From positions 1-64,000 of IMG/VR virus record IMGVR_UViG_3300032309_002614: DNA of 64,000 nt. One strand, written 5' to 3'. This document shows positions 7,184-40,867 of the stretch, piece by piece. Source of the stretch: a virus. Its lineage: Duplodnaviria; Caudoviricetes. Each line of letters opens with the position of its first letter. The first letter of the stretch is position 1. The notes under the pieces are model-generated. The model was not told the DNA's origin. It did no database searches and worked only from the letters and a program-made list of their open reading frames with translations. The position numbers were made by a program, and so were the translations under genes.

Positions 7184-7869
7184 ATAGAATCTCTATAATT
7201 TGTTCAAATTATAATTCAGACAAATGGGTTGATGAATATCTTCAATACGTTAATAATCAAGATTTTAAAGAATTTGATATTATATTTGTTGATGCCAATT
7301 CTACTGATCAGTCTTTAGAAAAAATTAAAAATTATAAATTTGATTCGAAAATAAATAAAAAAATAATAGAATGCAACAGTAGAATAGGACTGTATTCTGC
7401 TTGGAATATAGGGATAAGAGCTTCCACCACAGAATATATAATGAATTATAATACTGATGATATGTTATATAATAATGCTATTTCAATATATAATAATCAT
7501 CTTGTAAACAATCCAGAAATAGATTTATTTTATGGTCCTTGCGTATCGACTTTAAATAGAAATATTAATGATATTAATTTAATTTATGATTGGCCTGAAT
7601 ATTCTCATGAAACTATGTTGCAATTTTGTTTTTGTGGTCCATTTCCATTAGTTAAAAAAGAAGTTTTTAACAAGATAGGTTATTTTGATGAACGCTTCGT
7701 CTCTTCTGGCGACTATGAAATGTGGTTGCGAATGTCTAAATTTAATTGTAAATTCAAGAGAATTCCAGAAACTATCGGAGTATTTCATTTTAGACAAGAT
7801 TCTATAAACCAAAGCAATAAACAAAAAGCAATAGAAGAAGATATTTTAATTCAACAATTTTATAAATAA
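7180..7869 (+). CDS. Glycosyltransferase family 2
   Basis: ISIICSNYN, IIFVDANSTD, YNTDD, GDYEMWLR. Confidence 0.85.
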   Translation: MNRISIICSNYNSDKWVDEYLQYVNNQDFKEFDIIFVDANSTDQSLEKIKNYKFDSKINKKIIECNSRIGLYSAWNIGIRASTTEYIMNYNTDDMLYNNAISIYNNHLVNNPEIDLFYGPCVSTLNRNINDINLIYDWPEYSHETMLQFCFCGPFPLVKKEVFNKIGYFDERFVSSGDYEMWLRMSKFNCKFKRIPETIGVFHFRQDSINQSNKQKAIEEDILIQQFYK

Positions 7870-7870
7870 T

Positions 7871-8725
7871 ATGATAGTTCAAATAACAATGGCGAGAGAT
7901 GAATTGGTTTTTATAAAAGAGCTTTTACCAATTTGGCAGAAATTTTCAGATGGATTTGTTTTCTGTCTTGATTCTACAACTGATGGAACTAAAGAATATT
8001 TAGAGAGTGTAAAAGAAAAATTCAATATATTAGAAATTATTGAAAACCAACAGACAGACAATGACATGATGGTCGAAACAGACATTCGACAAAAACTCTT
8101 TGATACTGCAATGAAGTATTCTAATAAAATTATTTGCCTCGATGCTGATGAATATTTAGACGGAACAATCAACAAAAAACAACTAGAAAATATTTTAGAT
8201 TCCGAAAAAGAAGTTGTTTATCATTTACAATGGATTCAATATACTAGCAAAAACACTATTCGTACTGATGGGCCTTGGAAGATTAATTTTAAAGATCGTA
8301 TTGGATCTTATGATGGTCCAGCTAAGTTTAATTGGGCGCAAATGCACTCGTCTCATTTGCCTCTATTAAATAATCAAAAAACTATTGATTCTCAATATCT
8401 TTTCATAGCTCATCTTCAATGGTTAAGCAAGATTCATGTCGCTGTAAAACAATACTATTGGAAAACTGTAGACCATGTTAATAATACAAAATACAATATT
8501 TATGTTGCTGGAACAGCAGCTTATGATGCATCGGTAAATGACTTTAATTGGGAATATTCAAATTTCCCTTATGAACTAAAAATAAATGAAAAAATCTTTG
8601 ATAAAATTGATATTTTACAAAATTATAAATATAAAGAAATTAAACGGTTGCACAATCTACATCAAATTCCAGATTTGAACGACTGGGGATACAATATATT
8701 AAATCTAGATAAAAATCTTAAATAA
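7871..8725 (+). CDS. Glycosyltransferase family 2-like (GT-A)
   Basis: TMARDE, LDSTTDGT, ICLDADE motifs. Confidence 0.75.
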   Translation: MIVQITMARDELVFIKELLPIWQKFSDGFVFCLDSTTDGTKEYLESVKEKFNILEIIENQQTDNDMMVETDIRQKLFDTAMKYSNKIICLDADEYLDGTINKKQLENILDSEKEVVYHLQWIQYTSKNTIRTDGPWKINFKDRIGSYDGPAKFNWAQMHSSHLPLLNNQKTIDSQYLFIAHLQWLSKIHVAVKQYYWKTVDHVNNTKYNIYVAGTAAYDASVNDFNWEYSNFPYELKINEKIFDKIDILQNYKYKEIKRLHNLHQIPDLNDWGYNILNLDKNLK

Positions 8726-8738
8726 TTAATTTTAACCA

Positions 8739-10346
8739 ATGAACTTCTGCACTATTAGCGACGACAAGCATTTTCCTCTATTATTGAATTTAATAGGAAG
8801 CGTACATAAACATAATTATAATGAATTAAATGAAATTATGGTTTTTAATCTTGGTTTGAGAGAAGATCATATTCAAGAATTAAACAATATTGACAAGGTT
8901 AAAATTTATGAAATTGAAAAAACTAATCCAGATATATTAAAAGATATTCAAACCGATAAAAATAGATACGTTAAAGGGCTATTTTCTTGGAAGCCAGTTA
9001 TAATCAAGCAAGCATTAGATATACATAATGAAATATTATATTTAGATGCCGGTACAACATTACTGAAACCAATAAATATACTTTTTGAGCATATAAAAGA
9101 AAATGGTTATTTATTTTTTGATTGCGGTCATTCTATTAAATGGATGACTACAAATCATGTTATAAACAAATTTGAACTTAATAAAGAAGAAAATAAATGG
9201 CTATTAGATGATAATATATTTGGAATCGATGCTGGATTTCAAGGAATTTCAAGAAAAATATATAATGATTACGTTTTGCCTATGTATGAGTTATCTAAAG
9301 ATATAAATAATTTTGTAGATGATGGAACCTGCCCTCAAGGATGGGGAACTGGTAGACACGATCAAACTTTATTTAGTATTTTAGTTAGAAAACTTAAATA
9401 TAATATTTTAACTCACGGTAAAGAAATTTCATATTTAAATATAAACAATAAACAATTTCCATTTCATTTAACACATTTACTAAATGAATTAAAATCTGAA
9501 ACTCATGTTTTTAGATCAAGATGGAATATTACTAAACAATCATTAAATAATTCTTTAGTTTTTATAAAACCTAAACAAGAAAAACAAATTAAATCTTTAA
9601 ATCTTAAAGTTTTAAAAAACGATTTTGAATATTATTTAAAAATATGGGAAAATAATAATTATATAAATGAAAAGATGTACATAGATTTTGAAAATAAAGT
9701 TGATGAATATCCATTTCTTAAAAATCATTGCAATATAGTTTCTATGTTTAATTTAGGATATGGTGAAAAAGCTTTTAGATATCTATGGTTATTACTATTT
9801 GCTCAAGCTCCTGAAAAAATTAAATTCTTAGAAATTGGTGTTTTTAAGGGTTCTATATTAGCGTTATCTCAAATGTGTGCTTATTATTTGAATAAAGATA
9901 TAGAAACTTATGGATTGACTCCATTAAATTCCACTGGCGATAAGTATTCTAAATATATCGAAGACGATTATTTTCAGTCTATTTCTTTTTTATACGATAA
10001 ATTAAACATTAGAACCGATAAAACGCATATTATTCATGGATTATCAACTGATGAAATAATAAAACAAAATTGTATAAATAAAGGTCCATATGATATAGTT
10101 TATATTGATGGTGGGCATGATTATGACACAGTAATTAATGATATAGAATTAGCGAATAAAATTTTAAAACCTCAAGGATTTTTAATAATGGACGACGCTT
10201 CTTCTTATTTAAATTTTAATGATAACCATAAAGGATTTAAAGGGCATAGTGATGTCGGCATAGCAATAAAAGATAAATTAGATTTAGATAACAACTATAA
10301 ACATTTATTTGCATGTGGCCACAATAGAGTTTGGATTAAGTTATGA
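8739..10346 (+). CDS. Fusion of GT-A-like domain and class I SAM methyltransferase
   Basis: N-term FSWKP, ILYLDAG, RHDQTLFS; C-term FLEIGVFKG, IVYIDGGHDY, IMDD. Confidence 0.7.
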   Translation: MNFCTISDDKHFPLLLNLIGSVHKHNYNELNEIMVFNLGLREDHIQELNNIDKVKIYEIEKTNPDILKDIQTDKNRYVKGLFSWKPVIIKQALDIHNEILYLDAGTTLLKPINILFEHIKENGYLFFDCGHSIKWMTTNHVINKFELNKEENKWLLDDNIFGIDAGFQGISRKIYNDYVLPMYELSKDINNFVDDGTCPQGWGTGRHDQTLFSILVRKLKYNILTHGKEISYLNINNKQFPFHLTHLLNELKSETHVFRSRWNITKQSLNNSLVFIKPKQEKQIKSLNLKVLKNDFEYYLKIWENNNYINEKMYIDFENKVDEYPFLKNHCNIVSMFNLGYGEKAFRYLWLLLFAQAPEKIKFLEIGVFKGSILALSQMCAYYLNKDIETYGLTPLNSTGDKYSKYIEDDYFQSISFLYDKLNIRTDKTHIIHGLSTDEIIKQNCINKGPYDIVYIDGGHDYDTVINDIELANKILKPQGFLIMDDASSYLNFNDNHKGFKGHSDVGIAIKDKLDLDNNYKHLFACGHNRVWIKL

Positions 10347-32610: not shown

Positions 32611-33226
32611 TAAAGAACAAAAGTATATTTGTTTCGATTTTGAAACCTGTCATCTAAATCTGCTTGATGATAGCAATAAGCCTTGGCAATTAAGTTATCT
32701 GATTGCTAAAGGCAGCAATATACTTAAAGAAGTAGATAATCATATCTATTGGCCCGATCTTAAGCTCTCAGAAGGAGCAAAGATTGTGACTCATTTTGAT
32801 GAACGTAAATACCATTCGTTAGCTGCCGATCCAAAAGAAGTTCTGGAGGCTTTTGAAGATTATATTTATAATGATGAGTATCTGATTATTGGACAAAATC
32901 TATTGGGCTTTGATGTGTATATTCATAATACATATAGAAGACTGATGGGTAAGAAAAGCGACTTCTCTTATGTTAAGAGAATTATAGATACAAACTGTAT
33001 CGCTAAAGCTATTAAAAAGAATCTCAAACCTCAAAGAGATTCTGATTTTACTTTTTGGCAGTATAGATTAAATGATTTTCGCGAGAAAGGTCTAAAGACA
33101 AGCATTAAAACTCAGTTGAAAGAATACAAGATTGACTTCGATGAGAACATGCTTCACAATTCCATGTACGACGTTCAGATGAATTTTAAGATTTTTCAGA
33201 AGCAGCTTTGGCAAATTGAAATATGA
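32597..33226 (+). CDS. DEDDh 3'-5' exonuclease (DnaQ/epsilon-like)
   Basis: FDFET, GQNLLGFD, HNSMYD. Confidence 0.85.
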   Translation: MLRFNKEQKYICFDFETCHLNLLDDSNKPWQLSYLIAKGSNILKEVDNHIYWPDLKLSEGAKIVTHFDERKYHSLAADPKEVLEAFEDYIYNDEYLIIGQNLLGFDVYIHNTYRRLMGKKSDFSYVKRIIDTNCIAKAIKKNLKPQRDSDFTFWQYRLNDFREKGLKTSIKTQLKEYKIDFDENMLHNSMYDVQMNFKIFQKQLWQIEI

Positions 33227-34983
33227 ATTTTTTACAAGACATTAAAACTTATGATAACGCCATGCTTCCCGGCGTTCGATTGCCACAAATCTCCATCGAA
33301 AGTAAATATTACGATTTGTTGAGCATACCCACTTCTTCAGATAATTTTACATTTCTGAAGACTTTGTGTTGCAAGAGTTTAAATAACTTAGGATTAAATA
33401 ATAATCAATATGTTGAGCGAATGGAGATGGAATTGGAAATCTTCAGAGAGCTTGATTTCGTTGATTATGTACTTCTCAACTGGGATATTCTTAATTACTG
33501 CCATGAAAATAATATTCCAACTGGTGCTGGTCGTGGTAGTGCTGCGGGTTCTTTGGTTCTATTTATTGTGGGTGTTACGAAAGTTGATCCCATAAAATAC
33601 GAACTATTCTTTGAGCGTTTCGTTAGCCGTTCTCGCGCTAAGAAGATTATCAAAGATGATATTACTTATCTTGATGGTTCTCTTCTTCCTGACGTAGATA
33701 ACGATATCAGCTATGATAGACGCGCAGAAGTAATTAAGTATATTGAGCAGAAACATCTTGGCAAAACATCGAAGATCTTAACTCTCAATACTCTTTCTAG
33801 TAAGCTTTGTATTAAAGAGTGCGGAAAGATTGTTGGCGCTTTATCAGAAACAGATGTTAATGAAGTCAGTGACAATATTCCTAAATTATTTGGACGGGTT
33901 TTTGATTTGGAAGAGGCTTACAAAGCTAATGATAAATTTAAAGCTTGGGTTGATCAAAATAAATTCGTATTTGAAATAGCTAAGAAGATCGAAGGACTGA
34001 ATAAGAATACTGGTGTTCATCCTTCTGGTATTGCTATTTCTTATTATAAGATCGAAGAAGTTTGCCCAGTTCAAAAGACTTCTGATGGTGATTTAGTTAG
34101 CGGCTATGATATGAATTATGTAGCCGAACTAATGGTTAAGTTCGATGTTCTTGGCTTGAGAACTTTGACTGTAGTCAGCGAAGTTTGTAAAAGACTTAAT
34201 ATTGAAATGACTTCTATTGATCCAGAAGATCCTTTCATTTACGAAAGCTTTCAGAATCTTCGTACTCCACAAGGTCTATTCCAAATTGAAGCGGAAACCA
34301 ACTTCAAGGTATGCCGTAAAGTTAAGCCCAAGTCTCTTGAACAGCTTAGTGCGGTAGTTGCTATTGCTCGTCCCGGTGCATTGGACTTCGCTGATCAGTA
34401 TGCTACATATTCAGCTTCAGGAGTATTTCAGCTTGTTCACGATTTCTTTAAAGAAGAGCTTTCATATACTGGTGGCATTCCTCTTTATCAAGAGCAGTTG
34501 ATGAAGATGGCTGTGCGTTTGGGATTCACTCTTGATGAGTCAGAGCAGTTGCGACGTATCGTTGGTAAAAAGAAGGTTGATCAAATGCCAGCATGGCAAG
34601 GAAAAATTCGTCAGAAAGTTACAGAGCAGAATTTAGATATAGCAATTGGAGACGTATTATGGAAGGTGGCTGAAGACTCAGCGAATTATTCATTTAACAA
34701 ATGTTTATTACCAGAAACTGTAGTTGAAAGCAAAGATGGTCTAAAATGTTTAAGTGAGATTAAAAAAGGAGATTCTGTTTTAGCTTATGATGTAGAAAAT
34801 AATATTGATCATTTTGTACAAGTTGTAGATATTCATAAGAATGAAGTTGAAGTCTACGAAGTGGAAATGGAAGACGGAACAAAAATTTGCTGTTCTATGG
34901 ATCATAAATTTCTATGTGGAGATAAAAAAATGCATACTCTCAGAGATATTATTTCTCAACGTTTAGAGATTATGTGTAAATAA
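33223..34983 (+). CDS. dnaE: DNA polymerase III alpha catalytic core, N-part, fused to split-intein N-half
   Basis: GRGSAAGS, LFFERF, PDVDND, GVHPSG, KFDVLGL, LYQEQ, YSFNK|CLLPET; no PHP domain. Confidence 0.95.
   Translation: MNFLQDIKTYDNAMLPGVRLPQISIESKYYDLLSIPTSSDNFTFLKTLCCKSLNNLGLNNNQYVERMEMELEIFRELDFVDYVLLNWDILNYCHENNIPTGAGRGSAAGSLVLFIVGVTKVDPIKYELFFERFVSRSRAKKIIKDDITYLDGSLLPDVDNDISYDRRAEVIKYIEQKHLGKTSKILTLNTLSSKLCIKECGKIVGALSETDVNEVSDNIPKLFGRVFDLEEAYKANDKFKAWVDQNKFVFEIAKKIEGLNKNTGVHPSGIAISYYKIEEVCPVQKTSDGDLVSGYDMNYVAELMVKFDVLGLRTLTVVSEVCKRLNIEMTSIDPEDPFIYESFQNLRTPQGLFQIEAETNFKVCRKVKPKSLEQLSAVVAIARPGALDFADQYATYSASGVFQLVHDFFKEELSYTGGIPLYQEQLMKMAVRLGFTLDESEQLRRIVGKKKVDQMPAWQGKIRQKVTEQNLDIAIGDVLWKVAEDSANYSFNKCLLPETVVESKDGLKCLSEIKKGDSVLAYDVENNIDHFVQVVDIHKNEVEVYEVEMEDGTKICCSMDHKFLCGDKKMHTLRDIISQRLEIMCK
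34702..34980 (+). mobile_element. Split intein N-half (93 aa)
   Basis: CLLPETVV (block A)...CSMDHKF (block B) then stop codon. Confidence 0.9.
34974..34979 (+). promoter_or_regulatory. GTGTAA motif inside the last IntN codons
   Basis: First G 14 nt before ATG 34988 of the endonuclease. Confidence 0.55.
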
Positions 34984-34987
34984 TAGC

Positions 34988-35935
34988 ATGAGCGTTTTTA
35001 AAGATGAAGGTTTAAAAAAAATCATACCTATAGATATTTTTAATTATTGTATAATAGACAAAAAAACAAAAAAAGAAATTACAAATCTATTTCCTTCTAG
35101 GAATGAAGGTATTTATTATTTAAATAAATTTATAAATTTTTTATCAAAATATCATAAAATTTCTATTCAAGAATATATTGAAAAATATTTTAATGAAAAA
35201 TGGCCTATTTGTCCAATATCTAAAGAACCAGTTGGCTATAAAACCACAGGAATTGGACTTGTTCTTTCTAAGTTTAAAAGAGGCAAAGTAGACAAAAACA
35301 ATAGCGTGGCTTTTAGAAAAGCTTGTGAAAAGTTTTCCCAAGAAAGACTTGGTAAAAACAATCCTATGTATGGTAAAAAAGCTTGGAATACTGGATTAAA
35401 AAAAGAGACTGATGAAAGAGTGGCTATAGTAGCAAAAAAAAGAACTGGTAAAAAAATGTCTCAAGATTCAAAAGATAAAATGAAAGAAGCTAGAGAAAGA
35501 CATCCTTTAAAAGCTAGGCACACTACAAAACATTCGGAAGAATCAAAAGAAAAAATGAGAAAAGCCACCATTAATCGTTGGCAAATTGGTGAATTTTCAT
35601 TCAAAATTACTTCTATAGAGAAAAAAGTAGATCAATGGCTTAAAAATAACTGCGTTAACTACGTTTTTCAACACGGTATCGGCGGTTTTGTTGCCGATTT
35701 CGTTTGCTTAGATGAAAAAATTATAATAGAATGTCAAGGAGACTTCTTCCATTGCAATCCGTGTTTTGAAAAATATGCAGAACCAAAATACGATATACAA
35801 AAAAGAAATCTATATAGAGATAAAATAAAGAAACAGAAGTATAAAGATTTAGGATGGAAGTTGATAGAATTGTGGGAAAGCGACATTAACTCTGGAGAAT
35901 TTAAAAACATTTTAAGATGCGAACTCAAAAAATAA
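34988..35935 (+). CDS. Free-standing homing endonuclease (NUMOD3-like repeats + Vsr/DUF559-like domain) between the intein halves
   Basis: GKNNPMYGK, GKKMSQDSK, HSEESKEKM; ADF...IIECQGDFFH...RDKIK. Confidence 0.8.
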   Translation: MSVFKDEGLKKIIPIDIFNYCIIDKKTKKEITNLFPSRNEGIYYLNKFINFLSKYHKISIQEYIEKYFNEKWPICPISKEPVGYKTTGIGLVLSKFKRGKVDKNNSVAFRKACEKFSQERLGKNNPMYGKKAWNTGLKKETDERVAIVAKKRTGKKMSQDSKDKMKEARERHPLKARHTTKHSEESKEKMRKATINRWQIGEFSFKITSIEKKVDQWLKNNCVNYVFQHGIGGFVADFVCLDEKIIIECQGDFFHCNPCFEKYAEPKYDIQKRNLYRDKIKKQKYKDLGWKLIELWESDINSGEFKNILRCELKK

Positions 35936-36030
35936 TTTCGATTAAACCTTTAGGTTTAAAAAATACTTTAGATTTAGAAGTTAACCATTCAGATCATAAT
36001 TTTTATGCTGAAGGCTTAGTTTCTTCGAAC
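35917..36030 (+). mobile_element. Split intein C-half (38 aa)
   Basis: Block F DLEV..DHNF, terminal SSN followed by Ser+1. Confidence 0.9.
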
Positions 36031-37104
36031 TCTCACTCTATCTCTTATGCTATTTTGGCTGCGTGGACTGCTTATCTAAAATTCAAGTATCCGCATGAAT
36101 TTTTCTTGGCATTGCTTCAGTTGTCTAAATATGAGCCTGATTCACATCAAGAAATTAACAAGATTTCAAAAGAGCTAGTATATTTTGATATCAAACTTTT
36201 ACCTCCTGATCTAGCAAAATCTGCTCTTGATTTTAAGATTGAAGATGGCAATATTCGTTTTGGATTAAATTCTATTAAAGGCGTTTCTGAAAAGACGTTA
36301 CAAGCTCTTCAGAGTTTCAGAGAAACGAATACTCCAACAAAGTTTGATATTTTTATCGCCGCTAAACAAGCTGGTATTAATATCGGTCTACTTTCTTCTT
36401 TAATTCAAGCTGGAACTCTAAGTTCATATACTCATAGACGATCACGCTTAGTTCTTGAGGTGCAAACTTTTAATATCTTAACTGATAAAGAAAAGAAGTT
36501 CGCTTGTAGTGTTGGGCCTAAATATGACTATGATATTTTAACTATCGTAAGTGAATGCGCTTTCAAGGGTCAATCTCTTAATGAAAGCGGTAAACCTTTC
36601 ATGAATGAAAAGCGAAAAATTACATTCAAGAAAAAGTACGATGAATACAAGAAAATCTATGAACAGAACAAAGATCATGAGAAGTTCGCGAACTGGGTTT
36701 TTGAAAATAGGCTCTTAGGTTATACTCCAACTATTCGACTAAAGACTATTTTTCAGCAATCTGAGTGTACGTTTACAGATACAATGGAATTTCAATCTGC
36801 TTTTAAAGAAGACAGAGTAAAGATGGTTGGAGTGATAGATGATGTTTATAAGGGCAAAACTAAAAAGTCTAATTCTACATTCTATAGATTCCAATTGAAA
36901 GATGAAGTTGGCAGCGTAAGTGCGATGTTTTTAGATGGTGGAAAACACCAAAGATTAACAGAGTATCTTGAAGACGGTCTTAAAATTCCAGATAAGGAAA
37001 GTATTGTAGTTTTCACTGGCAGAAAGGGTGACGATGTGCTATGGATAGAGAACATCGGAATCTTGGACGACAAGATCTACATGAAGTTATCTGACATAGA
37101 ATGA
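35917..37104 (+). CDS. dnaE: Split-intein C-half fused to DNA polymerase III alpha C-part (HhH, OB fold)
   Basis: MRTQKIISIK...HNFYAEGLVSSN|SHSISYA...YLKFKYPHEF, IRFGLNSIKG. Confidence 0.95.
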   Translation: MRTQKIISIKPLGLKNTLDLEVNHSDHNFYAEGLVSSNSHSISYAILAAWTAYLKFKYPHEFFLALLQLSKYEPDSHQEINKISKELVYFDIKLLPPDLAKSALDFKIEDGNIRFGLNSIKGVSEKTLQALQSFRETNTPTKFDIFIAAKQAGINIGLLSSLIQAGTLSSYTHRRSRLVLEVQTFNILTDKEKKFACSVGPKYDYDILTIVSECAFKGQSLNESGKPFMNEKRKITFKKKYDEYKKIYEQNKDHEKFANWVFENRLLGYTPTIRLKTIFQQSECTFTDTMEFQSAFKEDRVKMVGVIDDVYKGKTKKSNSTFYRFQLKDEVGSVSAMFLDGGKHQRLTEYLEDGLKIPDKESIVVFTGRKGDDVLWIENIGILDDKIYMKLSDIE

Positions 37105-39506
37105 AAAATTTAAATTTAACACCAAGAGCGCAAAAGCTAATCAAAGAAGCTTATAAAATAGCTGTAGATCTCAAGCATACAGAGATCACGCATCTTCATT
37201 TATTTATAAGTTTTTTGAATCTTAAGCAGAGTCAGATAGAAGAAGCATTTGGAAATTTTGGCATAGATTCTTTAAAAATAAAAAACAGTGCTATAACATT
37301 TTTAAAAATCAACACTACAGCACAAAAGAAAGCGGTAACTAAACCTTTATTATCTGAAGGCATAAAGACTATTTTTAAATGCGCCAAAACTATATCTTCA
37401 AAATTTGATCATAAATATATTGGACTAGAACATGTATTTTTAAGTTTATTTGAAGTTCCTAATCAAACTTTTGAACTTTACTTGATTGATTATAATTATG
37501 ATTTTGTTAAAGTCGTGGACTATGTTGAGCAAAAGCTAGAAGATGATGATATGTTACCAAGCGTTGAGGAGGAAATAAACAGTCCTAATGAAGCGAAACA
37601 AACTTTTGATATAAAGAAGTATAAGGTTTTAAATACTTATGCTAATAATCTTAATATACAAGTTGTTAATGGTAAAATAAATAATCTACATCTTAATAAA
37701 GAACTGATTCAAAAGATCTCAGAAGTTCTTTGTCGCAAAAATAAGAATAATCCACTTATTGTAGGCGAAGCTGGTGTTGGTAAAACAGCTTTAGTCGAAT
37801 CATTAGCGCAAGCCATCGTTAAAGGTGAGGCTTCCGATCTGCTTAGTCTAAAGCAGATTTATAGCTTGGATATTCCAATGATGATTGCTGGTTGTAAATT
37901 TCGTGGTGAATTCGAAGAGAAGATTAAAAACCTTTTAAAAGAAATCACAGATGATCCATATATTGTTCTGTTTATAGATGAAATCCACACAATCATTGGT
38001 GCTGGAAATCCAGAAAATGGCAACGATGTTGCTAATATTCTAAAGCCTTATTTAGCTAGAGGAGAAATTAGCTGCATTGGTGCTACTACTTTCGACGAAT
38101 ACAAGAAGACTATATCTGATGACCCAGCTTTATCTAGGCGTTTTCAGATTATTAAAATCGAAGAACCCACTAAAGAACAAACCTTTAATTTAATCAAGAA
38201 TATTAAAGGTGGATATGAAAATTTTCATGTCATAGATTTTTCTGATGATGTTATTCATTTTATCATTAATAGTGCTGAAAAGTATATTGAAGGAAGATTT
38301 CCTGACAAAGCTTTAGATATTATTGATCAAGTAGGAGCTAAAGTTAAATTAAAGAATTTTATAAAGTCTCCTGAAATGCTTAAAATAGAAAAGAAGCTCA
38401 GTAAATTTGTTGATTCTAACAAGCAAATACGAGATAAGAAAAAGATTACTTCTTTAGAAGATCTTCTTATCGAGTATGAAGAGTCTACAAAAAAGATGAT
38501 TGCTAATTGGCGCAATAACAGATATCAAGTTACAAATTCAGACATATTAGAAGTCGTCTCTGATAAAACCAATATTCCGGTTAATGATTTAAAATTACAA
38601 GACTTTGATAAAGTCAAGTTACTTAAAACCAGACTAAAAGAACAAGTACTTGGTCAAGACAATCAAATAGAACATATATATAAATGTTTAATAAGAGCGA
38701 AAGCTGGTTTTCGAAATCCAAATAAGCCTATTTGTTCAATGCTTTATGCTGGGCCGACAGGCGTTGGAAAAACAATGACTGCAAAAATAATTGCAGAAAC
38801 TATATTTATAAATAAGAATAATTTTATAACAATTGACATGTCTGAATACACAGACAAGACCGCCGTAAATAAACTAGTTGGATCTAGTCCCGGTTATATT
38901 GGATTTGATAAAGGTGGAGTATTAACTGAAAAGGTAAGAAAGAATCCATATTCTTTAATTCTTTTCGATGAAATTCAAAAAGCCGATCAAGATGTTTTGT
39001 ACTCTTTGTTACAAATCCTTGAAGAAGGAAAGATAACAGACTCTTCTGGAAAGACGGTTGATTTCTCTAACACTATGATTGTTATGACAACTAATATCGG
39101 TGCTGAAGTCGTCAATCATTCTGCTATAGGATTTGGAAAGCAGAAAGCTGGCAAATCTGATGTCCTTTCTTCTATCAAAAAGCATTTTCCACCTGATTTG
39201 TTAAACCGTATTGATGAAGTAGTTATTTTTGAGAGTCTTGAGCAAGAACAAATTAAATTAATCATTGATAAAGAATTACAATTATTTAAAACAGATCTAG
39301 CAGATAGAAATGTCAATATTAAATATTCTCCAGAAATAACTAACTTTATTTTTGATAAAATACAATTTAATAACTTTGGCGCACGACAAGTTATTAAAAC
39401 TATTCAACGAGAACTGCAAACACAAGTTGCAGAAAAAATGCTTGATTCTGATGAAAAATTAAATTTGGAAATTTCAGTTAAAGACAACAATATTTGTGTA
39501 ATTTAA
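37101..39506 (+). CDS. ClpA/ClpC-family AAA+ ATPase
   Basis: Clp N-domain repeats, [32 protein letters not shown] loop, FGARQ. Confidence 0.9.
39496..39501 (+). promoter_or_regulatory. GTGTAA motif
   Basis: First G 16 nt before ATG 39512. Confidence 0.5.
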
Positions 39507-39511
39507 TTTGT

Positions 39512-39715
39512 ATGCCTTTACCTACTAAACATAAAAAAGAAACTGAACAAGAATTTGTGAATCGCTGTATGAGCGACGATATGATTAAAAATGATTTTAA
39601 AGATCAAAAACAAAGGTTAGCTGTTTGTTATTCTCAATATAAGATTCGTCACAAAGCTAAGGGCGAAACTAGTTGGGACGATGTTCGCAAAGGTGACAGT
39701 CTAAATATTCTATAA
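39512..39715 (+). CDS. Hypothetical protein with EFVNRCM...AVCYSQY motif
   Basis: ATG 39512 (MPLP) preferred over 39494. Confidence 0.6.
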   Translation: MPLPTKHKKETEQEFVNRCMSDDMIKNDFKDQKQRLAVCYSQYKIRHKAKGETSWDDVRKGDSLNIL

Positions 39716-39718
39716 TAT

Positions 39719-40867
39719 ATGAACGATCATAATCCTATTTACGGTATGAATCCAAATCCTCCAGTATCAAACGATACGTTTGATTTTGCGATGCCAGATA
39801 TTCCTGAGCCTCCTCAATCAGAAAAACCAGAACCAAAGGACAAAGATGCGGTTGGTTTTAAATTTGGCTTTATTGGTGCTGGTCAAGGTGGCGGCAAACT
39901 AGCTGAAACGTTCTCTCAAATTGGTTATGCTCGCGTTGGCGTAATTAATACTGCTGATCAAGATCTTGCTACTATCAATGTACCAAACAAGATGAAGTTT
40001 GGTGAGCAACAAGGAGCGGGTAAGAATAGAGAGTTTGCTAAACAAGCTTTCTTGAATAGTAAAGAAGATGTCGTTGATTTTATTAAATCTTCTGTTGGTA
40101 CGGATATTGATCGTATTTTTGTAACAGTTGGTGCTGGTGGTGGAACTGGTGCTGGTGTTTGCTCCGAACTTGTTAAGACGGTTAAGGAATATCAAAATAC
40201 TGTAAAGGCAAGTTCTCCTTATGTTGGTCTAATTCTCGCTCTGCCAAAGCTTTCTGAAGGTAAGAAAGTTAGTCAAAATGCTTACGAGACACTAAAGGAA
40301 GCTTGTGAACTAGTAGAGCAAAAGATTGTTTCTCCTCTTATTATTCTTGATAATGAAAGAATTAATACTCTTTATCCAAAGCTATCTGTAAATAAATTCT
40401 GGCAAGTTGCAAATGCCAATATTTGTTCTCTATTCCACTTGTTTAATAATATTATAACAAAGAATAGTCAATATAGCACATTCGATACAAATGATTTCAG
40501 AACTGTTCTCGATTCTGGTATTATGGTTTTTGGTGCAGCTAACATTACTAATCATAGCAGTGAAGCCGAAATCAGTAAGGCAGTACGCGAAAATCTCAAG
40601 AGAAATGTTTTGTGCGGCGAACTTGATCTTTCTACTGGTAGCACCGCTGCTGCTGTGGCTATTTGTGACGAAAAGACGTTAGACTATATTCCTCAAGAAT
40701 ACCTAGACAATGCTTTTAATCAATTAAATAGAACTTTAAAGACTAACAGCACGGTTCATCAAGGTGTTTACAAGGGTGTTAAAGAAGGTCTTTCTATTTT
40801 TACTGCAATTGGCGGCATCACGACTCCAACTGGTAAACTAGAAGCTCTTCTAAAAGCTAGTCAATAA
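39719..40867 (+). CDS. FtsZ/tubulin-superfamily GTPase
   Basis: IGAGQGGGK, INTA, GAG, GAGGGTGAG signature, ILDNE, FDTND T7-like loop. Confidence 0.9.
   Translation: MNDHNPIYGMNPNPPVSNDTFDFAMPDIPEPPQSEKPEPKDKDAVGFKFGFIGAGQGGGKLAETFSQIGYARVGVINTADQDLATINVPNKMKFGEQQGAGKNREFAKQAFLNSKEDVVDFIKSSVGTDIDRIFVTVGAGGGTGAGVCSELVKTVKEYQNTVKASSPYVGLILALPKLSEGKKVSQNAYETLKEACELVEQKIVSPLIILDNERINTLYPKLSVNKFWQVANANICSLFHLFNNIITKNSQYSTFDTNDFRTVLDSGIMVFGAANITNHSSEAEISKAVRENLKRNVLCGELDLSTGSTAAAVAICDEKTLDYIPQEYLDNAFNQLNRTLKTNSTVHQGVYKGVKEGLSIFTAIGGITTPTGKLEALLKASQ

Follow-up and report, generated by a model that had tools for sequence, protein, structure and literature searches.

A fractured dnaE gene in an uncultured phage: a probable split intein, an endonuclease gene between its halves and an allele series at one codon

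How can a phage obtain a DNA polymerase from a gene that is broken into two separate reading frames? The question is raised by a stretch of 64,000 nucleotides (nt) from an uncultured phage (Caudoviricetes; IMG/VR record IMGVR_UViG_3300032309_002614), hereafter the window, the numbering of which is used throughout. Its dnaE gene is interrupted between the K and the S of the motif FNKSH: an open reading frame (ORF) of 586 amino acids (aa) stops after what resembles the N-terminal half of an intein (IntN), an endonuclease gene follows, and a 395-aa ORF opens with the matching C-terminal half (IntC). The layout described in an initial annotation of this DNA agrees exactly with the bases, as judged from the ORF list of the + strand and inspection of the sequence (Table 1). 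Judged from sequence, the locus very probably holds an active, naturally split mini-intein of the class-1 type, with a free-standing gene for a homing endonuclease of the EDxHD family in the gap. Nested endonuclease domains of inteins normally occupy the gap where this gene sits.

Table 1. Features of the fractured dnaE locus, followed by other genes of the window (start positions where a single number is given)
Feature	Position	Strand	Remarks
586-aa ORF	33223-34983	+	DnaE core (residues 1-493), then IntN (residues 494-586), then stop
DnaE N-extein, residues 1-493	33223-34701	+	Palm/NTPase and finger domains; C-terminal end ..ANYSFNK; PF07733 E=2e-57, PF17657 E=3e-29
IntN, 93 aa and TAA stop	34702-34983	+	Cys1; block B S-M-D-H; net charge -7
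GTGTAA start-associated motif	34974-34979	+	Within the IntN Met-Cys-Lys codons ATG-TGT-AAA (ATGTGTAAA), 8 nt before the endonuclease ATG
Free-standing endonuclease gene, 315 aa	34988-35935	+	N-terminal domain, NUMOD3 motif, C-terminal Vsr-like EDxHD nuclease domain
395-aa ORF	35917-37104	+	Starts MRTQKII, runs to ..HNFYAEGLVSSN followed by SHSISYA
IntC, 38 aa	35917-36030	+	Ends ..DLEVNHSDHNFYAEGLVSSN; first 19 nt (35917-35935) overlap the endonuclease 3' end
DnaE C-extein, 357 aa	36031-37104	+	Starts SHSISYA; HhH and OB-fold part; PF14579 HHH_6 E=1e-15
DnaE PHP-domain ORF, 255 aa	31843-32610	+	PF02811 PHP and DnaE N-terminal models
DnaQ/epsilon-like 3'-5' exonuclease ORF, 209 aa	32597-33226	+	Between the PHP and polymerase-core genes; PF00929 RNase_T and NCBIfam epsilon subunit models
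RecA-like gene	26373	+	Replication module
DnaB helicase	28211	+	Replication module
DnaG-type primase	29700	+	Replication module
PD-(D/E)XK nuclease	30776	+	Replication module; followed by the PHP, exonuclease, 586-aa, 315-aa and 395-aa ORFs
ClpB/ClpA-like double AAA+ protein, 801 aa	37101	+	Adjoins dnaE downstream (37101-40867 with the next)
TubZ-like tubulin	39719	+
Ribonucleotide reductase large subunit, 922 aa	20274-23042	+	Contiguous intein: PF14890 over residues 268-622, PF14528 at 472-544

The polymerase pieces, the intein halves and the endonuclease

The two DnaE pieces fit together without loss. The N-extein covers positions 319-751 of the NCBIfam DnaE model PRK05673 (751 falling at residue 493), and the 395-aa ORF takes up the model at position 752 with its residue 39. 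As positions 751 and 752 abut, no DnaE residue has been lost or duplicated, and the 93 + 38 residues of the intein halves are extra; the lengths given to both halves in the initial annotation are thus confirmed by the ORFs, the sequence and this model. Its further claim, that joining the exteins restores FNKSH, is borne out by relatives. A search with the 586-aa ORF gave three length classes (about 586 aa, that is N-extein plus IntN; about 850 aa; and 982-992 aa), and the 850-aa proteins, at most 95% identical, read ..ANYSFNK-SHSISYA.. uninterrupted in the alignment. The sum of the two exteins (493 + 357 = 850 aa) equals the length of this intein-less gene.

IntN runs from CLLPET.. via ..CSMDHKF.. 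to ..EIMCK, where the ORF stops. In phmmer searches it matches the IntN of the Nostoc punctiforme (Npu) DnaE intein (4lx3_A; E=1.2e-6), the alignment reaching the natural C-terminus of that protein, and gp41-1 (E=2e-4); a word-based search with IntN alone gave relatives at this DnaE site only. IntC can be aligned over the full 36 aa of the Npu IntC, and also with the C-terminal end of the Spl DnaX mini-intein; its last residue is Asn, followed by Ser at position +1. The same features recur in 12 alleles, with IntN identities to the window of 41-100%: all keep Cys1, directly after ..YSFNK, as N-terminal nucleophile, S-x-x-H, D-(L/F)-E-V-x-H-x-D-H-N-F-Y, (S/T)-S-N and Ser+1. Block B (S-M-D-H in the window) aligns with T-K-D-H of Npu DnaE, with its His invariant and Ser in place of Thr in every allele, and the C-terminal junction reads ..VSSN/SHS in the window and (S/T)SN/SHS in all alleles. 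The ratio of nonsynonymous to synonymous divergence (dN/dS, Nei-Gojobori) is 0.11-0.20 for IntN and 0-0.16 for IntC (0.02-0.06 for the exteins): the residues predicted to carry out splicing are kept under purifying selection.

The HINT (Hedgehog/intein) fold was checked on a natural contiguous relative, P0011 (alignment of 20 rows), standing in for the window's own halves; row L112:9031-10221 was left out of the full-length folding alignment. The model is of medium confidence (mean predicted local distance difference test score, pLDDT, 70; 56-85 through most of the intein). With Foldseek, its intein domain matches gp41-1 (6qaz; template-modelling score, TMt, 0.76, root-mean-square deviation 2.6 A), Npu DnaE (2keq, 0.74; 4kl5, 0.70), Ssp DnaB and other inteins, with TMt 0.62-0.76 overall. 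That the intein is especially close to the cyanobacterial DnaE intein cannot be demonstrated, since sequence slightly favours Npu and structure slightly favours gp41-1; the intein resembles the two about equally.

The initial annotation placed a NUMOD3/Vsr-like endonuclease between the halves, and domain models, a structure model and structure search all agree with it. Pfam reports NUMOD3 (PF07460) at residues 117-132 as well as DUF559, NCBIfam reports TIGR00632 vsr (E=5e-7), and residues 204-302 match Escherichia coli Vsr (phmmer E=0.003). The AlphaFold 2 (AF2) model (pLDDT 89.4) is matched by Foldseek to Vsr (1cw0, 1vsr) and to the catalytic domain of I-Bth0305I (3r3p), with E=1e-4 to 4e-4 and TMt 0.74-0.77 for 3r3p. 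Most homologues are likewise 315 aa long. Among 32 homologues (26-82% identity), R120, G122, N125 and P126 of NUMOD3 as well as W133, H182, E248, G251, H255, Q271, D278, K281, W296 and E297 show no variation, and D237 hardly any. D237, H255 and D278 align with Asp51, His69 and Asp97 of Vsr. The EDxHD family has an extra acidic residue beside the Vsr-type Asp/His/Asp, and E248 was assigned to it by the description in PMC3239194. With a dN/dS of 0.13-0.19, the gene is therefore maintained and not decaying.

I-Bth0305I is the prototype of the EDxHD homing endonucleases (PMC3239194; PDB 3r3p). The two proteins share a NUMOD-type DNA-binding region and a C-terminal Vsr-like nuclease domain in which Asp/His/Asp and the extra acidic residue are conserved. 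Unlike I-Bth0305I, the window's endonuclease has a further N-terminal domain of roughly 100 aa, and identity in the nuclease domain is about 19%; whereas I-Bth0305I is encoded in a recA group I intron, the gene described here is free-standing inside a split intein.

At the 3' end of the endonuclease gene, the initially described overlap with the IntC ORF measures 19 nt. At its 5' end lies GTGTAA, which the initial annotation had noticed in the last IntN codons. In an independent re-count, 13 of the 25 GTGTAW sites on the + strand of the window sit 8-10 nt 5' of an ATG (ORFs of 67-436 aa), against 0/12 on the - strand. Sites of this kind (GTGTAA or GTGTAT before ATG) include 1644, 19218, 47514, 48870, 58410 and 63016. 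The motif looks like a promoter or start signal giving almost leaderless mRNAs. The tract ATGTGTAA..AATAG.ATG shows few changes in 8/8 alleles with the EDxHD endonuclease, even in the one where that protein is just 40% identical, and an allele with a different gene in the gap (L112, see below) has GTGTAT 8 nt 5' of the ATG of that gene.

Alleles at one codon and movement of the cassette

We classified 160 related loci from IMG/VR and metagenomes at the DNA level: 139 lack the intein, an insert stands at exactly this codon in 15, and the other 6 are partial. The protein clusters collected comprise 85 that are intein-less, about 42 that stop after IntN and 3 that are contiguous. The contiguous clusters carry a mini-intein of 132-142 aa at this site, and their IntN is 73-83% identical to that of the window. 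Both IntN and IntC stand in one chain in P0011 (982 aa), with a one-residue join (..EIMCK-S-MRTQ..), and in P0005 (992 aa), with an eleven-residue join; P0199 reads ..EIICK-Q-IRTQ... Junction DNA of a contiguous intein was found neither in two pattern scans (one of viral contigs, one of metagenome contigs) nor in the protein-guided metagenome scan that gave loci L081 to L114.

The inserts are of four kinds, all with IntN at one end and IntC at the other. The window shares the forward EDxHD endonuclease gene, in an insert of always 1323-1329 nt, with L033, L084, L083, L082, L011, L110 and L034 (and with L031, which is cut by the contig end). Six loci (L035-L038, L113 and L114) have a GIY-YIG gene on the opposite strand instead, for instance at L036:9772-10608 (-) and L037:9743-10591 (-). 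In L112, a diverged relative, the gap holds a 377-aa DUF285 gene (7784-8914, +; PF03382 E=7e-103, no nuclease). Finally, L081 has no gene between the halves: IntN and IntC (L081:7444-7890) are in the same frame, 54 nt apart, and the spacer resembles the 3' end of the endonuclease gene. Its insert length of 447 nt would suit a contiguous intein; two in-frame stops within the 54 nt make it a split form without endonuclease. L081 is an endonuclease-lost state, like gp41-7 of Dassa et al. (PMC2677866).

When 50,697 phage records were searched, the DNA of the locus gave no match, and at the protein level DnaE alone was matched, with up to 33% identity; therefore no cultured relative is known.

Several observations bear on the mobility of the insert. 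In every computable comparison the synonymous divergence (dS) of the cassette is below that of the exteins (0.18-0.28 against 0.48-0.70 for L084, and 0.52-0.81 against 1.14-2.18 for L083). Likewise, identity to the window is 64% in the exteins and 77% in IntN for L110, and 45% and 77% for L031. The opposite is seen in L085, a close extein relative (N-extein 96% identical to the window's) with an intein of the GIY-YIG-allele type (IntN 41% identical). Guanine-cytosine content is 27-29% in the cassette and 35-37% in the exteins. In the flanks, too, there are differences: window and L033 differ by 1 mismatch in the 1329-nt insert and by 0 from -208 to +168 around the junction, whereas beyond +750 they differ by 23-38 mismatches per 150 nt, and there the window is identical to the intein-less L001. 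Compared with L001, the window has 20 mismatches in the 150 nt directly 5' of the junction, compared with only 1-4 in each 150 nt of the 600 nt before them, and the eight mismatches nearest the junction (-4, -10, -16, +32, -34, -37, -43, -49) all fall on third codon positions. This pattern is as expected from co-conversion of flanking DNA during homing, though ordinary mosaic recombination could give it too.

Endonuclease and IntN identities run in parallel across alleles (93/94, 82/86, 63/76, 56/77 and 40/46%). Given that endonuclease and intein diverge together, we favour transfer of the cassette as a unit into dnaE genes that lack it over independent homing of the endonuclease into contiguous inteins. 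Taken together, these comparisons indicate that intein and nuclease move as one cassette between phage lineages, and the layout is probably mobile.

Relation to known fractured genes and to the phage genome

Fractured genes were defined by Dassa, London, Stoddard, Schueler-Furman and Pietrokovski in 2009, with DnaE among the hosts (PMC2677866). That study lists three fractured DnaE loci (GOS DnaE-1, -2 and -3), whose integration points differ from the cyanobacterial one; they are incomplete read assemblies, outside its five full-length pairs. For DnaE-2, a 315-residue endonuclease of Vsr-like type is given, modelled at "positions 196-315". The overlaps between the endonuclease 3' end and the IntC ORF in fractured genes measure 6-69 bp, and an RNA hairpin, often with a late-promoter-like element, lies 5' of the endonuclease start in 15/16 fractured loci (PMC2677866).

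The window's locus agrees with this description in its dnaE host, in the adjacent same-strand ORFs with IntN and IntC, in the free-standing endonuclease gene between them, in its overlap (19 nt falls within the range) and in an integration point that is not cyanobacterial either. As in DnaE-2, the endonuclease is Vsr-like and 315 aa long. Compared by description, the locus is of the same kind as the fractured DnaE genes of Dassa et al., possibly even of the same allele family as DnaE-2. It differs in being complete, in lying on a large phage contig and in having a full series of alleles, and apparently in its 5' signal: no hairpin pair is conserved across the 7 alleles compared, and what is conserved instead is the promoter-like GTGTAA-N8-ATG.

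In the initial annotation the layout was said to be known from gp41-1, NrdJ-1 and IMPDH-1. The assignment to the fractured-gene kind holds, but the list was incomplete, as fractured DnaE was already present in Dassa et al. 2009 (PMC2677866). With gp41-1 (PDB 6qaz) and the other metagenomic split inteins (NrdJ-1, IMPDH-1) the window's intein shares a fractured-gene origin and similar half sizes; it differs from gp41-1 in the host protein and in sequence (identity about 28%).

The cyanobacterial split DnaE inteins (Npu, Ssp; PDB 4lx3, 2keq, 1zd7) have the same host protein and the same split position, and provide the best IntN sequence match. Their halves are encoded far apart and with no endonuclease (PMC2677866), whereas here they are adjacent with an endonuclease gene between. 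The cyanobacterial C-extein starts with Cys-Phe-Asn (PMC3585056), so that its allele sits between ..AEY and CFN.. with Cys+1; the window's insertion lies between FNK and SHS with Ser+1, a contrast that the initial annotation drew correctly. Since Phe-Asn-Lys is within the window's N-extein, the insertion point is 4 residues downstream of the cyanobacterial one and +1 is Ser. The penultimate Ser instead of His, also put forward as distinctive, is not: neither intein has a penultimate His, as the Npu IntC ends in ..ASN where that of the window ends in ..SSN. Ser+1 is also used by gp41-1.

The genome around the locus offers further observations. The PHP and exonuclease genes are separate overlapping ORFs in almost every one of the first 80 related loci (L001-L080), with or without intein; this separation is a trait of the lineage, unrelated to the intein. 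Downstream of dnaE, the ClpB/ClpA-like AAA+ protein and the TubZ-like tubulin are unusual companions of a phage replication module. The large subunit of ribonucleotide reductase has a contiguous intein with a nested LAGLIDADG domain, so that, with the split one in dnaE, two intein architectures occur in the same phage.

Weighing the explanations

We favour the explanation that the two halves splice and that the endonuclease spreads the cassette. Two polypeptides, DnaE(1-493)-IntN and IntC-DnaE(494-850), would be made, and the acidic IntN would associate with IntC into the HINT fold. Cys1 would form a thioester, Ser+1 (the Ser of FNKSH) would attack and the terminal Asn would cyclise, joining the exteins into an 850-aa polymerase core with FNKSH restored (junction peptide ..ANYSFNKSHSISYA..). 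The endonuclease would be expressed from its own GTGTAA-N8-ATG signal, encoded by the last IntN codons, and would drive copying of the IntN-endonuclease-IntC cassette into the intein-less dnaE of co-infecting relatives. Replication may then depend on protein trans-splicing, as the initial annotation suggested.

Several points weigh against this explanation. We infer both splicing and cleavage, block B carries a Ser in place of the Thr of most inteins, charge complementarity is one-sided (net charge 0 for IntC, -7 for IntN), and pLDDT in the P0011 model falls to about 30 at the last intein strand and the C-terminal junction. Over the endonuclease start, RNAalifold found no consensus pair across the 7 alleles compared; in the window, the predicted hairpin that pairs the start codon (-13.6 kcal/mol, z = -0.78) is no better than in shuffles. 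At this locus there is therefore no support for translational control of the kind described for other fractured genes. Moreover, the phage may have a second DNA polymerase, as the screen was confined to the source contig beyond its first 25.8 kb and, within the window, to part of the ORFs.

How far do other explanations account for the same data? That the stop and insert are an artefact of assembly or sequencing, or mark a dead pseudogene, is hardly conceivable: the architecture occurs in at least 15 independently assembled, diverged loci with intact frames, and the exteins have a dN/dS of 0.02-0.06. The assembly artefact, which the initial annotation had considered, is refuted by the same 1329-nt insert in independent assemblies at 0.1% to >15% nucleotide divergence, with its three frames kept. 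Non-covalent clasps have been proposed for other fractured polymerases, and the split NrdA of phage Aeh1, which has no intein, is a demonstrated example; here too the halves might have ceased to splice and merely hold the two DnaE pieces together. The conserved Ser+1 is uninformative on this point, being a conserved DnaE residue as well. Nevertheless, a dead clasp seems very improbable on three grounds. Five residues (Cys1, the His of block B, the Asp and His of block F, and the last Asn) are unchanged in 12/12 alleles, the most distant of which is 41% identical; neither half is truncated, each matching active inteins from one end to the other; and contiguous alleles exist that would need splicing to yield a polymerase.

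The remaining alternatives accept splicing and concern the endonuclease. It might home alone, its target being a contiguous mini-intein at the IntN/IntC boundary and not the intein-less dnaE (step II of the model of Dassa et al.). Contiguous alleles with a similar IntN do exist (P0011, P0199 and P0005), and unrelated cargo (the opposite-strand GIY-YIG gene, the DUF285 gene) occupies the same position within diverged inteins. We still regard this as rather unlikely, given the parallel divergence of endonuclease and intein and given that both the tract shared with L033 and the cluster of mismatches to L001 reach into the exteins. This fits a transfer of the complete cassette into intein-less genes, which are the large majority of potential targets (139/160 loci). 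Alternatively, trans-splicing could be needed while the endonuclease is an immobile relic, retained solely for its 3' end, which provides the IntC ORF with its start region. The 19-nt overlap does couple the two ORFs, and L081 shows that the endonuclease can be lost with the gene still split. Purifying selection along the whole endonuclease and the invariance of all putative catalytic residues argue against a relic, as do a cassette dS below that of the exteins and the presence of almost the same cassette between different flanks, so that this alternative seems improbable.

Beyond the favoured explanation of a splicing intein that moves with its endonuclease, a wider interpretation is offered tentatively. 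It is possible, though on present evidence doubtful, that a single dnaE codon preserves a complete and reversible intein life cycle in living alleles: the empty site, the contiguous mini-intein, the fracture by an EDxHD gene, the swap of cargo (reverse-strand GIY-YIG or non-nuclease DUF285), the loss of cargo with the gene still split, and perhaps re-fusion. The last state may be represented by P0005, as its 11-residue linker (..SKNNYR-M) resembles the endonuclease tail (..FKNILR) read one base out of frame. In the same tentative interpretation, the Met-Cys-Lys codons at the end of IntN might be kept partly as the phage's GTGTAA-N8-ATG gene-start signal, borrowed by the parasite.

The claim to novelty is reduced by the fact that a fractured dnaE with an intervening endonuclease gene was described in 2009. 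New here is the full allele series at one site: intein-less, contiguous, or split with an EDxHD gene, a reverse-strand GIY-YIG gene, a DUF285 gene or nothing between the halves. To this are added the evidence of cassette movement between phage lineages and the endonuclease start signal within IntN. The fractured dnaE is complete and anchored in a genome, whereas the 2009 description of this host gene consists of partial read assemblies only.

As the initial annotation proposed, the pair of 93-aa IntN and 38-aa IntC (Ser+1, native junction FNK/SHS) may become an orthogonal tool: it is a candidate addition to the split-intein toolbox, with about 28% identity to both gp41-1 and Npu DnaE, and its natural variants (41-94% identical) could probe orthogonality. 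DnaE is not mentioned in the text of Pinto et al. 2020 (PMC7090010), which gives no sign of a phage DnaE split intein having been tested there. For the biology of these elements, the single-site allele series is natural material to test the gene-breaking model of split-intein origin, and it can also probe the target of the endonuclease (the empty gene or the contiguous intein). Overall, the locus presents a case in which the expression signal of a mobile element is written in the coding sequence of the very intein that the element fractures.

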